From a virus (taxonomy: Duplodnaviria > Caudoviricetes): a DNA stretch of 38,042 nucleotides. Position 1 is the first letter of the stretch. Each line of letters opens with the position of its first letter. The notes beneath the pieces were generated by a model. That model ran no database searches and was not told the origin of the DNA. It was given only the letters and a program-made list of their open reading frames with translations. A program made the translations under genes and the position numbers. This document shows positions 27,961 through 38,026 of the stretch, piece by piece. The stretch lies in the IMG/VR virus record IMGVR_UViG_3300027732_000057, positions 1 to 38,042 of that record. One strand, 5' to 3'.

Positions 27961-28842
27961 TTATCCTACAAATGGGCCAGAGGCTGGTGATGTTGTTGGC
28001 GAGCCATTATTTCCGTTTCCGTGTATATGTGTATTAAATACGGCACTGTTTATCTGGTCCGACATTAATATTGATTTTAATACACCGATGTTACCTAAAG
28101 AGAAATTGGCTATCGGTGCATTTACTGATATAACTGCATTGACTGTTCCGAGAGCATTTATTTGACCTATAATTGCAATTGGTGCTAGTGGTGTTGGAAA
28201 CGAAGCGGATACACCACCACATGTGGTGAATCCATCTAATCCAGCATACACACCACCACCCTTTAAATCACCGCCAATAATTCTGTCCGCTTTGATAATA
28301 TCACCAGTTAATGTTCCTGAAACTTCTAAATCAGAACGCACTGAAATGTGATCAGCTGCACCCAAATACATTGTTCCACCAAAACCTTCAGATGCTGATA
28401 ACTCTACATCTCCATCACCAGATAAAACCAATGAACCTTTAGACCTGATTTGAGTATTTCCACCAACCAACATTTCATAATCACCAGCAACTTGAACACC
28501 CATGTTACCAGCAACAGATAAATTACAGTTACCGTCTATTTGTATGCTACAATTACCTGATATTCTGACATTGTTATTTTGCACAATAATTGTGTAACCA
28601 TTACCAAAGACTTTGTGAACCTCACTGCCATCAGGATGCATCTCAATGAATGTTCCTACACGATGTGATAAACGAATTCGTTCTCTGGTTGGAGTATCAT
28701 CCATTTCCAATTTGTGACCGGCTTCTGTTGCAGTAACATTATTATATGGATATATTGGTTGATAGTCGGTGTTGGCCGCAGATTCTGGTTCTGTCCATGC
28801 ACCTTCAACAAAAGGCATTTCATCTGAGTATATTGTTGTCAT
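27961..28842 (-). CDS. gp5: Central spike, gp5 C-terminal part (beta-helix with HxH tip)
   Basis: YPYNNVTATEAGHKLEMDDTPTRERIRLSHRVGTFIEMHPDG; 8-residue VxGN/D repeats; ends THIHGNGNNGSPTTSP. Confidence 0.85.
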   Translation of the reverse strand: MTTIYSDEMPFVEGAWTEPESAANTDYQPIYPYNNVTATEAGHKLEMDDTPTRERIRLSHRVGTFIEMHPDGSEVHKVFGNGYTIIVQNNNVRISGNCSIQIDGNCNLSVAGNMGVQVAGDYEMLVGGNTQIRSKGSLVLSGDGDVELSASEGFGGTMYLGAADHISVRSDLEVSGTLTGDIIKADRIIGGDLKGGGVYAGLDGFTTCGGVSASFPTPLAPIAIIGQINALGTVNAVISVNAPIANFSLGNIGVLKSILMSDQINSAVFNTHIHGNGNNGSPTTSPASGPFVG

Positions 28843-28853
28843 AATTTAAGGAG

Positions 28854-29753
28854 TTAAGGAGTTGAGTTATTAATTACTTTGGGTATTATACTTGCTGCAA
28901 CACTATCGTTTGAAGGTAGTGTTGATTCGTAAGCTGAAATTGTTCTATTTGCGGCATCCAGGTCTGCCTGTGAAACTGGAACTGCAAAGCCGGCAGTAGC
29001 ATAACCAGCAATTGTAACTGCACCTACGGCTACAGCTGTTGCTGCTTTAACTGTAGTAACTGCTTCGTTGACCGTATTTCTTGTTTCCTTAATAAGATCT
29101 ACTGCGCCTGTCGGATCTGAACCTGTTCCTAATTCTGTTAAGAAATCGGTGAATATGTTTTTTATCAACTTTAAAAATTTAACCAAACATTCAGCCAAAA
29201 GTTTCAATAACTTTGCAGGTAGACTTATGATCCATTGAATGATTGCTCTTATTTTAACTATGTATGCGAGAACATATTTTTGAAAATCTAGAACCTTTTT
29301 TAAATAATATTGTACCTGCTGTAAAAATCTTTGAATTCTTCTCAGTTCAACCATAATTCCAGCAAAAAAACCAGTTTTATCAGTGAAACCTAATGCTTTC
29401 ATAACTGCACGTATACCTTCTCTGATGTAGCTGGCAGTTACTTTTATAAATTCTTTCAAATACACATTCTTACGCATCTCATCAATGAAACCACAAACGT
29501 GTGTTCTTCTTGTGTTTGTGTAATGTGTTGATGTTCCGATTATTTTACCCCTTGCGGATGCATGAATTGATGGTGTACCGGCAATTCGGCCTTCATTACC
29601 AAATCTGCCTGGAGGACTTAAATTTGCTTCAGCACACTGCGCTGGCAAATCTTTAGGAGAATCTTTTGGATATGTAAATTGTGATTGTGAAATGATATAC
29701 GCTTGATATTCTTGTGCGGTAACTTCTGTACCATTAGGTAATGTAAATGCCAT
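28854..29753 (-). CDS. Amphipathic helical protein occupying the middle of the gp5 locus (299 aa)
   Basis: Preferred start is ATG 29753 (ACAGGAGAATAATATG, with SD, coupled to the upstream stop) rather than 29792. Confidence 0.75.
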   Translation of the reverse strand: MAFTLPNGTEVTAQEYQAYIISQSQFTYPKDSPKDLPAQCAEANLSPPGRFGNEGRIAGTPSIHASARGKIIGTSTHYTNTRRTHVCGFIDEMRKNVYLKEFIKVTASYIREGIRAVMKALGFTDKTGFFAGIMVELRRIQRFLQQVQYYLKKVLDFQKYVLAYIVKIRAIIQWIISLPAKLLKLLAECLVKFLKLIKNIFTDFLTELGTGSDPTGAVDLIKETRNTVNEAVTTVKAATAVAVGAVTIAGYATAGFAVPVSQADLDAANRTISAYESTLPSNDSVAASIIPKVINNSTP

Positions 29754-29754
29754 A

Positions 29755-30090
29755 TTATTCTCCTGTGTCCGTAACTTCTGTGCTGGTTGCATATTCAGGT
29801 GTAACTATACCAGGTAAAACACCCATCATGATAGGCGCCTGTGCCGCATCGCCATCCATAAAGAAACCAACAATCCATTCACCTAACATAGGTGATGAGA
29901 AAGATTTTGAATTGTTTAATGGATACATTGGTAAGGCCCAAGGTAGGTCCTCTGTAGGTAAATTCATTTTGTTATCTGTGTGCCATCCAAAAATCCTGAC
30001 ACGGCACCTACCCAGTCCTAGTGGGTCACCTCTAGATTCCAAAATTCCAACCCACCATATGAAACCATCTTTACCAATAAAATTATTCAT
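29755..30090 (-). CDS. gp5: gp5 N-terminal OB-fold as a standalone protein
   Basis: FIWWVGILESRGDPLGLGRCRVRIFGWHT..LPTEDLPWA..GEWIVGFFMDG..AQAPIMMG; GAGG SD. Confidence 0.9.
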   Translation of the reverse strand: MNNFIGKDGFIWWVGILESRGDPLGLGRCRVRIFGWHTDNKMNLPTEDLPWALPMYPLNNSKSFSSPMLGEWIVGFFMDGDAAQAPIMMGVLPGIVTPEYATSTEVTDTGE

Positions 30091-34184: not shown

Positions 34185-34856
34185 ATGGCACGTTCAATTA
34201 ACGATTTCAAATCAAGCTTTAAGGGAGACTTAGCACGAAGCAACAGATTCGATGTTGATATTCCTGTACCTTTAACCTTGATTCCGTATATCAAAACATC
34301 TCGCAATCTGGTTTACCGATGTGAGAATGCTAATTTGCCTGCTCGCACATTTGCAACAACAGAACAAAAAACATACGGTCCGGTGGAAAAACATCCGTAC
34401 CTAACAACATATAACGATATTGATTTGACATTTATTGTTGATGATGATATGCAACAAAGGGTTTTCTTTGATGCATGGTTGAACTATATCAACCCAACAT
34501 ACAATTACAATATGCGTTATAAAGAAAATTATACAACAACTATAACAATCAATCAATATGATGTTACAAACAAATTGTCATACACAATAAATTTGTTTGA
34601 TGCATATCCAATTTCTATGAATCAACTAGACTTAGATTGGAATGGCGATAGTTACCACAAATTGACGGTGACTTTTGCGTACACATATTGGAAAAACAAT
34701 TCCCTACAATCATTGGGTATGGAATTACTGGATGCTGGCCTCGATTCTGTGGTCAGTGAAATGGGTGGACTTGGTGGATCAATCAGTGGTGCTATTGGAA
34801 GTGGTTTCAATTCAATGGCAACATCACTAGAAAAACCAACAACTTTTAATAAATGA
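34185..34856 (+). CDS. Tail tube initiator, gp54/gp19-like
   Basis: LARSNRFDV, RCENANLP, YNDIDLTF, LFDAYPI..LDW, LTVTFAY: tail-tube fold motifs. Confidence 0.8.
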   Translation: MARSINDFKSSFKGDLARSNRFDVDIPVPLTLIPYIKTSRNLVYRCENANLPARTFATTEQKTYGPVEKHPYLTTYNDIDLTFIVDDDMQQRVFFDAWLNYINPTYNYNMRYKENYTTTITINQYDVTNKLSYTINLFDAYPISMNQLDLDWNGDSYHKLTVTFAYTYWKNNSLQSLGMELLDAGLDSVVSEMGGLGGSISGAIGSGFNSMATSLEKPTTFNK

Positions 34857-34869
34857 TATAGGAGTTATT

Positions 34870-35595
34870 ATGGCTTTACCAAAACTTGAAGTGCCAACAT
34901 ACGAATTGGAATTACCTCTTTCCAAGAAGTATATAAAATTTAGACCATACTTAGTCAAAGAACAAAAATCTTTGATGATGGCCATGGAATCATCAGATGC
35001 AAAAACGATTCAACATAATGTGAGAGAAATCTTAAATGTCTGTACATTGAACAAAGATGTAGACATTGATGAACTTCCAATCATTGATATTGAGTATTAC
35101 TTCCTGCAATTGCGGGCAAAATCCGTTGGTGAGGTTGCCGATTCTAAGTATCGTTGCAACAATGAGGTTGAAGATGTGGCCTGTGGTAACATCATGGAGG
35201 CCAAAATTGATTTGACTCAAATTATGCCAGTACAAGAAGAATATGTGGATCCAGAAATTCAATTGAATGACAAGATTATGATTAAGATGAAATATCCACC
35301 ATTCAAATTGATTAGTGATTCTATTGAAATGGATGACATTACAGAAGTTACCTTTCATATGATAGCCAATTCTATTGAACACATTTATGACGGCGAACAA
35401 TTTCACTATGCAAGAGACCAAACCACGGAAGAATTGGTTGATTTCATTGAACAATTAAGCCAAGAACAATTTGAGAAACTTGAAAAATTCTTCAATAGTG
35501 TACCTAAGTTAAAGAAAGACCTTGATATTACATGCTCTAAATGTGGTTTTGAACACCACTTGCATGTGGAGGGCCTTGAAAGTTTTTTCGCCTAA
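34870..35595 (+). CDS. gp26: Baseplate hub assembly protein gp26-like
   Basis: MALPKLEVPTYELELP..FRPYLVKEQK, YFLQLRAKSVGE, MKYP, CSKCG, EGLESFF; AGGAG SD. Confidence 0.9.
   Translation: MALPKLEVPTYELELPLSKKYIKFRPYLVKEQKSLMMAMESSDAKTIQHNVREILNVCTLNKDVDIDELPIIDIEYYFLQLRAKSVGEVADSKYRCNNEVEDVACGNIMEAKIDLTQIMPVQEEYVDPEIQLNDKIMIKMKYPPFKLISDSIEMDDITEVTFHMIANSIEHIYDGEQFHYARDQTTEELVDFIEQLSQEQFEKLEKFFNSVPKLKKDLDITCSKCGFEHHLHVEGLESFFA
35568..35589 (+). promoter_or_regulatory. Putative -1 frameshift signal: internal SD GGAGG plus slippery heptamer T TTT TTC
   Basis: GGAGG at 35568-35572; heptamer at 35583-35589 in X XXY YYZ phase with gp26; 10-nt spacer. Confidence 0.7.
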
Positions 35596-35780
35596 TACTT
35601 GGTTATGATGATTTAAGAAATTACTACAAGACTAACTTTTCATTGATGCAACACCATAAGTATAGTCTTACCGAACTTGAAAATATGATACCTTGGGAAC
35701 GAGATATCTATGTCGCCATGTTGATTCAATATTTGGAAGAAGAAAACCAAAAACTTAAAGAACGACAAAGAAATAAATGA
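35583..35780 (+). CDS. gp51: gp51-like frame, probably expressed as a -1 frameshift extension of gp26 (alternatively a 44-aa ORF from ATG 35646)
   Basis: Not in the ORF track. FFRLILGYDDLRNYYKTNFSLMQHHKYSLTELENMIPWERDIYVAMLIQYLEEENQKLKERQRNK*; stop overlaps the next ATG (ATGA). Confidence 0.8.
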   Translation, partial: FFRLILGYDDLRNYYKTNFSLMQHHKYSLTELENMIPWERDIYVAMLIQYLEEENQKLKERQRNK

Positions 35781-38026
35781 AATTGTTTGGAAATAAAAAA
35801 GAAGATACTGGCGATAAATCGTCAAGTCCTGTTGCGTCTGAAAAAACAAAAAGTTCCGCTAGTTTTCTGAAAAAAACTTTCAACAAAATAGGTGATGTTT
35901 TACATAAAAAATTTGGTTCAACTAAACACACAACAGATGCTGAACCTATGTCTAATGTTGAATATCTTGGTGAAATTTATAAATTGATGATGCAGAACCA
36001 AGATGATATAAAATTTGAAAGACAAGAATCTGTCGAAAAGAAAAGATCAGATGACACTGATGAAGAAAATAGACATAAAGAGATAATCAAGGCCTTAACT
36101 TTACGTAGACGACCTACGAAAACTACTCGGCGTGTCAAAGAAGAAAAAAAACCAGAAGCTAAGAAAAAAGAACCTGGTAAAGAAACGGATAAAGATAAGG
36201 CCGGTAAAAACAAAGCAGCTGCTGAAGCTCAGAAAAAAGCAGCTGCTGATAAAGCCAAAGCTGATAAAGCAGCTGCTGAGAAAAAGGCTGCAGCTGAGAA
36301 AGCTGCAGCTGAGAAAGCTGCAGCTGAGAAAGCCAAAGCAGATAAAGCAGCTGCTGATAAAGCTGCAGCTGAGAAAACCAAAGCAGAAAATGAACGTGTA
36401 GCTCGAGAAAGACAAAAACAATTAGAAAAAGAAGAACAAAAAAAAGCTGCAGAAAGACAAAAACAATTAGAAAAAGAAGAACAAAAAAAAGCTGCAGAAA
36501 GACAAAAACAATTAGAAAAAGAAAAACAAAAAGCCAAAGAAGATAAAGATGCTGCTGATAAAAAAGCAGGAGAAGCACAATCAGAAGCAGATAAAAGAGC
36601 TGCAGCACGTGCTCAAGAAGAAGCAAATAAAAAAGTAGCCGAAGCTGAAAGAAAAGCAGTTGAAGAAGCTAAGAAAAAGGCTGCAGCTGAGAAAGCTGCA
36701 GCTGAGAAAGCTGCAGCTGAGAAAAAGGCTGCAGCTGAGAAAGCTGCAGCTGAGAAAGCTGCAGCTGAGAAAGCTGCAGCTGAGAAAGCTGCAGCTGAGA
36801 AAGCTGCAGCTGAGAAAGCTGCAGCTGAGAAAGCTGCAGCTGAGAAAAAGGCTGCAGCTGAGAAAGCTGCAGCTGAGAAAAAGGCTGCAGCTGAGAAAGC
36901 TGCAGCTGAGAAAAAAGCAGCGGAAGAAGAAAAGAAAAGGTTAGCTGAAGCGGAAAAGAAAAGGTTAGATGAAGAAAAAGCTCGTACAGCTGAAAAAGTT
37001 CCAGAAACAAAACCTCCGGCAAAACCAGAAACTGCAACACCTAAACCAGAAACTGCAAAACCAGAAACTGCAACAAAGCCTGCACCAGGAACTGCAAAAC
37101 CAGATGCAGGAACAGCTACAAATATACCTAAAGCTGGTGTTGGTCTTGCAACTGTTACCGTAGGATCAGCAATCGCTGCTGCCGAGTCAAAAGGTAATTA
37201 TGATGTTTCATTTGGTGATTCATATGATGAAAAACTTCGTAAATATGTTAATTATGCAACAGATCCAAAAACAAAAGAACGATTAAAATTAAAAACTCCT
37301 GAAGAATTTTCTGGAAAAAAATTAACAGAAATGACTCTTGCAGAAGTTAAGGCTTTTGGTGAATATCGGTCACAAGGTGGTGCAGGAGCAGGTGCTGTAG
37401 GTGCATATCAATTTATGCCATCAACTCTTTTTGGCACATGGAGAACAAACCGTAAAGGTAAACGTGTTTGGCACGATGGGTTGGTCCAGCGGCTAAACAA
37501 GCCGATGGATACCGTATTCAATAAAGATTTACAACAAGAATTTTTTGAATTGTTACATTCTGATGATGTTAAAATGTTAAAAAAATTAGGTTTACCTATA
37601 ACACCGGGTTATGAATATATGGCACATTATCTTGGTGCTGGTGGTGCCAAAATTGTTTTTGATGCAATAAAAAATAAAGAAAATATAACTGTTGATGAAG
37701 CTCTTATAAAAGCAGGCAAAGAAGTTGGAAACAATCCCGACCTCAAAAAATGGAAAGTACAAGAGTTTGAAAAAGAATTGGAAAGAAGATTAGTGGAAAA
37801 AGGTGGATTCAAAATACCCTCAGCTGATTTGAATAAACCAACAAATAATAACGGTATTAATTTAGACCAAGAATCCACAGTAAACAAAAATATAAAGAGT
37901 AATTTGAATAACTCAAACAATAAAAATTCCGATAGTTCTGTAGGAGGGTTCTTCAGTAATTTTTTTGGCGGTGAATCAAATACAGCACCAACAGTTAAAG
38001 ACGGACCAATACACTTAAGAAAATAA
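35777..38026 (+). CDS. Tail-associated protein at the tape-measure position: A/E/K helical rod, Pro linker, lysozyme-like (transglycosylase) domain
   Basis: 749 aa; AIAAAESKGNY (putative catalytic Glu, 37184-37186), AVGAYQFMPSTL, YMAHYLGAGGA. Confidence 0.8.
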   Translation: MKLFGNKKEDTGDKSSSPVASEKTKSSASFLKKTFNKIGDVLHKKFGSTKHTTDAEPMSNVEYLGEIYKLMMQNQDDIKFERQESVEKKRSDDTDEENRHKEIIKALTLRRRPTKTTRRVKEEKKPEAKKKEPGKETDKDKAGKNKAAAEAQKKAAADKAKADKAAAEKKAAAEKAAAEKAAAEKAKADKAAADKAAAEKTKAENERVARERQKQLEKEEQKKAAERQKQLEKEEQKKAAERQKQLEKEKQKAKEDKDAADKKAGEAQSEADKRAAARAQEEANKKVAEAERKAVEEAKKKAAAEKAAAEKAAAEKKAAAEKAAAEKAAAEKAAAEKAAAEKAAAEKAAAEKAAAEKKAAAEKAAAEKKAAAEKAAAEKKAAEEEKKRLAEAEKKRLDEEKARTAEKVPETKPPAKPETATPKPETAKPETATKPAPGTAKPDAGTATNIPKAGVGLATVTVGSAIAAAESKGNYDVSFGDSYDEKLRKYVNYATDPKTKERLKLKTPEEFSGKKLTEMTLAEVKAFGEYRSQGGAGAGAVGAYQFMPSTLFGTWRTNRKGKRVWHDGLVQRLNKPMDTVFNKDLQQEFFELLHSDDVKMLKKLGLPITPGYEYMAHYLGAGGAKIVFDAIKNKENITVDEALIKAGKEVGNNPDLKKWKVQEFEKELERRLVEKGGFKIPSADLNKPTNNNGINLDQESTVNKNIKSNLNNSNNKNSDSSVGGFFSNFFGGESNTAPTVKDGPIHLRK
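36407..36530 (+). repeat. 45-bp tandem repeat, ~2.7 copies (ERQKQLEKEEQKKAA)
   Basis: gaaagacaaaaacaattagaaaaagaagaacaaaaaaaagctgca units start at 36407, 36452 and 36497. Confidence 0.9.
36680..36913 (+). repeat. 15-bp tandem repeat x15 (gctgcagctgagaaa, AAAEK) with three extra Lys codons
   Basis: Counted directly; a shorter related array lies at about 36270-36375. Confidence 0.95.

Follow-up and report, generated by a model that had tools for sequence, protein, structure and literature searches.

The gp26-like gene and its second frame

The window, as the whole stretch of viral DNA analysed here is called (38,042 bases, 36.8% G+C), is one complete contig. It comes from a T4-like phage and contains its module of tail and baseplate genes, with tail fibres, wedge genes, gp5, gp48, gp53, gp4, gp2 and a tube-family gene according to their PHROG labels. 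The T4 gene names used across the window are those that we take to correspond to these labels. The sequencing runs containing the stretch are labeled lake, freshwater or aquatic. Two observations were made elsewhere in the module: the gp5-like sequence is split into two ORFs (29755–30090 and 27961–28842) separated by an ORF of 312 aa that is unrelated (region 27961–30090, minus strand), and several tandem arrays of 42, 63 and 120 bp occupy positions 1–2354 within a tail-fibre-like ORF, also on the minus strand.

The gp26-like gene (34870–35595, plus strand, as are all features described below) encodes 241 aa, predicted to be a short tail assembly chaperone (TAC-N), and matches PF12322 (E 5e-57) and phrog_150 (E 2e-61). 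Directly 5′ of it lies a tail-tube-family gene (gp54/gp19-like; 34185–34856; phrog_45 E 5e-46, PF06841); the gene at this position in phi-pp2 and RHph_Y68 is annotated as baseplate-tail tube initiator. The next gene on the 3′ side is an ORF of 749 aa (35777–38026). The final codons of gp26 read GAA AGT TTT TTC GCC TAA and contain the slippery heptamer T TTT TTC (35583–35589), in phase with gp26 and separated from the stop codon TAA (35593–35595) by one sense codon. Ten nucleotides 5′ of the heptamer is an internal, Shine-Dalgarno (SD)-like GGAGG (35568–35572; anti-SD duplex −9.8 kcal/mol), a likely stimulator of shifting. The −1 frame is closed by a TGA (35577–35579) just 5′ of the slip site and open from there on (35580–35780, 66 codons), with the first TTG at 35643 and the first ATG at 35646. 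Entered at the heptamer (35589–35780), it would add an extension of 63 aa, a predicted TAC-C that matches phrog_634 (E 1.6e-30) and positions 230–276 of phrog_150.

The earlier note had proposed from this region that a −1 frameshift fuses gp26 to a gp51-like frame in a product of ~303 aa. The positions it gave for the gp26 end, the heptamer, the TGA, the −1 frame, GGAGG and the starts were all confirmed in the sequence, and the fusion computes to 240 + 63 = 303 aa. In the 11,501 codons of 26 window ORFs, T TTT TTC occurs in phase only once, at the end of gp26. A sequencing or assembly error was considered and is ruled out, since the T run is free of gaps in contigs from all four of the lake or freshwater RNA runs that were aligned to it (contigs that can show neither rare variants nor rare slippage nor expression level, from a kind of library that can hold DNA) and the relatives agree.

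The T run in relatives

Relatives were taken from IMG/VR with a single-protein query (best 80 of 85 loci) and with an alignment query against 2 of the 64 parts of the collection (best 80 of 595 loci), and from 12 GenBank records chosen from a spread of 60 among 1,154 matches. Together with the window this gave 173 loci, two without a complete gp26 ORF and four with less than 70 nt downstream. Merging identical junctions left 126, from which L089 (a T4-type two-gene layout) and L096 (a frame break inside gp26) were dropped; among the remaining 124, the junction of the window is represented by the identical L001. The relatives reach down to about 25% protein identity, and the proteins form 47 clusters at 60% identity, with 44 representatives having Phe239.

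An in-phase T6 is present in 121 of the 124 distinct junctions, as TTTTTTC in 110, TTTTTTT in 8, TTTTTTG in 2 and TTTTTTA in 1. Synonymous variation of the Phe-Phe codons, which had been named as a sign against frameshifting, was not found: the Phe239 codon is TTT in 121/121 relatives with Phe there and in all 44 representatives (<60% identity). Codon 238 ends in T in 44/44 representatives as well, across five forms (AGT, GAT, AAT, TCT and ACT). Equally conserved Phe columns that served as controls are split between the two codons in the same representatives (for example F78, 25 TTT and 19 TTC; F207, 16 and 26). A conserved Arg codon read in the −1 frame accounts in part for the C that ends the heptamer. 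In three junctions (L131, L150 and L153), gp26 runs on for another seven codons before its stop, which lengthens the dual-coding overlap; the position of the heptamer is unchanged. The three junctions without T6 (L087, L090 and L091, from Vibrio K369, Shigella AG3 and Vibrio YC) retain only T TTC. In these three, the −1 frame has an ATG that overlaps the stop codon of gp26, and their Ackermannviridae-type phages would either use slippage of a single tRNA or have switched to translational coupling.

Correspondence to T4-type gp26 and gp51

In Escherichia phage vB_EQ1, gp26 (P0002, 208 aa) and gp51 (P0001, 250 aa, one ORF) are separate, divergent genes, an assignment that is our own and comes from profile matches. 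P0001 covers positions 13–281 of phrog_150, window gp26 positions 5–232, and the −1 frame continues where gp26 ends, at 230–276. Likewise, the PF12322 match ends at P0001 residue 201, and residue 200 is where the alignment of the −1 frame begins (15/46 identities over residues 200–244). A profile of in silico fusions scores P0001 at E 8e-17, the two parts alone at 2e-9 and 2e-8. P0001 spans both parts, so that the predicted fusion has a natural counterpart read in a single frame, in which the two domains meet at the position of the slip site. The characters of the T4 gp26/gp51 family are thus found in both products, PF12322 and phrog_150 in gp26 and the phrog_634 domain in the long form, and the gp51-like identity that had been proposed for the −1 frame holds.

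We therefore consider it very likely that a minority of ribosomes shifts by −1 at T TTT TTC, so that the locus yields a major product of 241 aa and a minor one of 303 aa, which are probably short and long tail assembly chaperones of the lambda gpG/gpGT type. Frameshifting itself we infer from the sequence.

Predicted fold and neighbouring genes

The AlphaFold2 model of gp26 (mean pLDDT 87.6) was compared with 48,161 chains. The best matches were 3FGX (Z 7.5, rmsd 3.9, 86 aligned), 3KLU (Z 7.3, rmsd 4.0, 86 aligned) and 2OB9 (Z 6.8, rmsd 3.6, 80 aligned), all three within gp26 residues 1–96 and all with Z-scores below 8, a middling range that the tool calls common. They were followed by 5IR0, of unknown function (5.7), and the rest stood at 3.8 or lower. 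The three top chains are named tail assembly chaperones (TAC) in a passage of PMC9603447, and gp26 is accordingly predicted to have a TAC-like fold. Foldseek of gp26 against the PDB returned nothing at E ≤ 0.001, with 2OB9 only at E 3.0. When the second half of gp26 was folded alone, 3KLU and 2OB9 again came first, weakly (Z 5.4 and 4.5), and by these models gp26 may consist of two TAC-like folds in tandem; profile-profile alignment gave no signal for an internal repeat in gp26 (probability 0.3). Cys96, Cys105, Cys222 and Cys225 of gp26 are retained in 42–49 of 54 relatives and could form a zinc site.

The 749-aa ORF matches phrog_4067, a transglycosylase (E 2.9e-5). It contains an array of 15 units of 15 bp (36680–36913) and a 45-bp array, which encode helical repeats rich in Ala, Lys and Glu, followed by a C-terminal part resembling SLT/lysozyme domains (Atlas SLT-like matches 0.92–0.93); its N-terminus differs widely among relatives. 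A tblastn search against GenBank phages found no match, and Pfam gave nothing above the cut-off. Judged by its repeats and its SLT-like end, the ORF is possibly a tape measure or an internal virion protein. In some relatives, the gene after the gp26/−1-frame locus is gp5 or gp55: gp5 adjoins it 3′ in the Ackermannviridae-type records, and in Synechococcus phage BUCT-ZZ01 the gp55 late sigma gene follows, so that the locus is not beside a tape-measure-like gene there. T TTT TTC is retained in this phage. For the chaperone switch of the lambda G/GT type proposed in the earlier note, the site, the frame, the homology and the predicted TAC fold stand; a tape-measure identity of the next gene is possible, with gp5 or gp55 in its place in some relatives.

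These neighbours bear on a different role for the same two products. The frameshift could be real and the proteins be assembly factors of the baseplate hub (gp5/gp27/gp28) rather than chaperones of the tape measure, which we regard as unlikely, though the least so of the alternatives. In its Table 2, PMC3004832 (part consulted) counts T4 gp26 and gp51 among the hub assembly chaperones, and genetic studies cited in the same source place T4 gp26 in the hub; lambda gpG, in contrast, is absent from virions, which counts against the chaperone reading. The position of gp5 next to the locus in Ackermannviridae-type records points the same way, as do a length of gp26 about twice that of HK97 gp13 and its four partly conserved cysteines. 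Against the hub role stands the fact that the best-matching structures for each half of gp26 are TACs. Moreover, the same part of PMC3004832 includes gp29, the tape measure, among the components of the hub, so that the two roles overlap.

Coding signal and starts in the −1 frame

Whatever the role of the long form, its C-terminal part could in principle be translated as a small gp51-like gene of its own, from ATG 35646, from TTG 35643 or by re-initiation at an ATA over the gp26 stop. This we hold to be quite improbable. A separate CDS is indeed annotated in 11/11 non-T4-type GenBank records examined, and in 33 of the 124 relatives a canonical start lies at codons 3–6 past the site, several of these starts overlapping the gp26 stop. 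Another 26 have ATG, GTG or TTG 14–17 codons upstream in the open −1 frame, which brings those with a possible start at either position to 59/124; some relatives could thus start the second frame independently. In 47/124, the window included, the first canonical start is at least 16 codons past the site.

The frame itself is constrained from the slip site on. It is free of stops over codons 0–44 past the site in 124/124, with a −1 stop no more than 15 codons 5′ of the site in 107/124; in 120/124 the +1 frame meets a stop in the first 21 codons. Over −1 codons 5–20, which precede the ATG, third positions are the most variable (entropy 0.99, 0.62 and 1.33 for the three codon positions), and by this substitution pattern the −1 frame already codes for protein some 20 codons ahead of the first ATG. 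A conservation starting only at Met 35646, which had been named as evidence against the shift, was therefore not observed; like the gp51 homology, it begins about 20 codons earlier, at the slip site. The ATG is retained in only 90/124. As had been noted for the window, it lacks an SD (anti-SD pairing +0.3 kcal/mol, that is, none), and an SD of −5 kcal/mol or better precedes it in 0/121 relatives; the AG3 record states "no identifiable ribosome-binding site." The codon overlapping the gp26 stop takes 20 forms (ATA in 36 and ATG in 10 of 124), and a separate gene leaves the invariance of T6 unexplained. Two specific start mechanisms were tried and rejected: re-initiation at the ATA, which is not conserved, and use of GGAGG as initiation SD of the second frame. 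GGAGG is about 22 nt 5′ of the codon at the gp26 stop and 73 nt 5′ of ATG 35646, too far in both cases.

Signals flanking the slip site

Under the criterion that PMC4066793 sets for motif and spacing, an SD-like motif precedes the site in 82/121 relatives and in 31/44 representatives. In 500 synonymous simulations, which treat the sequences as independent and ignore their relatedness, the counts were 51 on average and 67 at most for the relatives, and 17 on average and 25 at most for the representatives; none reached the observed values. Along gp26, the stretch adjoining the site ranks first of 60 (z −5.2). Much of this SD-like signal derives from conserved Glu-Gly codons, and exact GGAGG is found in only 36/121 relatives and 7/44 representatives. 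Given this number and the way the simulations handle relatedness, the motif is better described as a conserved tendency than as an invariant element. The earlier note had offered GGAGG as an upstream stimulator: its distance of 10 nt from the heptamer and the enrichment of SD-like motifs fit such a candidate role, although the exact sequence is kept in only a minority of relatives. On the 3′ side, three folds of the window gave no stimulatory structure above shuffled sequences (z 0.31 for 61 nt and −0.29 for 91 nt).

Slippage of RNA polymerase on T6, which would put an extra U into some transcripts and so produce the fusion, is the least probable reading of all: the run is mostly six T and always in one phase, usual transcriptional slippage tracts are longer than that, contigs of all four RNA runs are free of indels (a weak point, as contigs cannot show rare variants), and the enrichment of SD-like motifs 5′ of the run points to the ribosome, against which can be set a T7 in 8/124 relatives and the link between seven-U runs and transcriptional slippage drawn in an excerpt of PMC4066793.

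Discussion

According to the preferred reading, a −1 ribosomal shift, most ribosomes would stop at TAA 35593 and release the product of 241 aa. The remaining minority, likely held up by pairing of 16S rRNA with GGAGG 10 nt upstream of the heptamer, would undergo a tandem slip of two tRNA-Phe from UUU UUC to UUU UUU, without a 3′ structure, and would resume at CGC 35589 to complete the 303-aa fusion with its gp51-type C-terminal domain. The ratio of short to long form would presumably be low and fixed. By analogy to lambda, as described in passages of PMC5009743, the tape measure would be coated by the 241-aa form, and the role of the extension would be to bring in tube protein. Heptamers of the form H_HH.U_UU.Y, to which U_UU.U_UU.C belongs, rank with the most efficient ones in E. 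coli; among the tetramers, U_UU.C comes second (PMC4066793, excerpt).

The arrangement appears not to be new. TAC genes with polyT slippery sites were reportedly assigned to T4-like phages in 2022 by Vladimirov, Gautam and Davidson, in work reported to be bioinformatic, the T4-like TAC genes reportedly being genes 26 and 51. This identity of the two genes agrees with the profile and alignment matches of vB_EQ1 P0001. To judge from the passages that cite it, the gp26/gp51 frameshift arrangement of T4-like phages thus appears to be already in print (Vladimirov et al, 2022), and the tables of that work may cover the freshwater clade of the window. PMC12846349 (excerpt) likewise treats polyT sequences as an established −1 signal of the TAC-N genes in T4-like phages, and according to PMC10885494 (excerpt) there are T4-like phages that have two separate genes, one short and one long, instead. 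No experimental proof of the gp26/gp51 frameshift in T4-like phages was found among titles and the beginnings of abstracts, in a search that most subscription journals lay outside. With the arrangement apparently in print, the present analysis contributes a further example with thorough quantification, along with an SD that is a candidate stimulator. A more specific proposal can be put forward tentatively, and we would not give it even odds: the gp26/gp51 frameshift of aquatic T4-like phages may be tuned by an internal SD selected within Glu-Gly codons, without a 3′ structure, and gp26 may combine TAC folds in tandem. Neither the tuning by an internal SD nor the tandem TAC detail was found in the literature searched, which includes Vladimirov et al (2022) only through citing passages.

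In a 2016 review, G-T frameshifting is called conserved "except T4" (PMC5009743, in part). The present locus supports the view that T4-like phages are no exception to the rule of two-length tail chaperones, and suggests a likely function for T4 gp26 and gp51. In the 11 non-T4-type records, the CDS of 40–65 codons that follows gp26 under the name "gp51" or as hypothetical is probably no gene of its own.

The closest counterparts are T4 gp26 and gp51 themselves: the short product of the window corresponds to gp26 and the fusion to full-length gp51, and the domain boundary falls at the slip site. The two layouts differ in that T4-type phages have two divergent genes and no heptamer at the gp26 end, whereas the window has one gene and a −1 frame. 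A short protein with a −1 C-terminal extension from one gene is what the locus would share with lambda gpG/gpGT and the TACs represented by HK97 gp13 (2OB9), YqbN (3KLU) and Rbstp2171 (3FGX), as far as these are described in the consulted part of PMC5009743. With lambda it further shares a TAC-like fold, here predicted, and a tail-tube-family gene upstream, but of the lambda-type layout the 3′ neighbour is only a possible tape measure, and the heptamer is U UUU UUC in place of the Lys-tRNA site of lambda. Compared with 2OB9, at about 100 aa, gp26 is about twice as long (241 aa) and possibly holds two TAC-like folds. An internal SD 10 nt 5′ of the shift site is known from E. coli dnaX (PMC5009743 and PMC4066793, excerpts), which has another heptamer; the 3′ stem-loop was not detected in the window. 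The TAC genes of Pakpunavirus Adele and the Andersonviridae, in the passages available of PMC12846349, belong to another phage family and use a GTTTTT motif, but resemble the locus in a conserved T run near the 3′ end of TAC-N, followed by an uninterrupted −1 frame that is annotated as a separate hypothetical gene.
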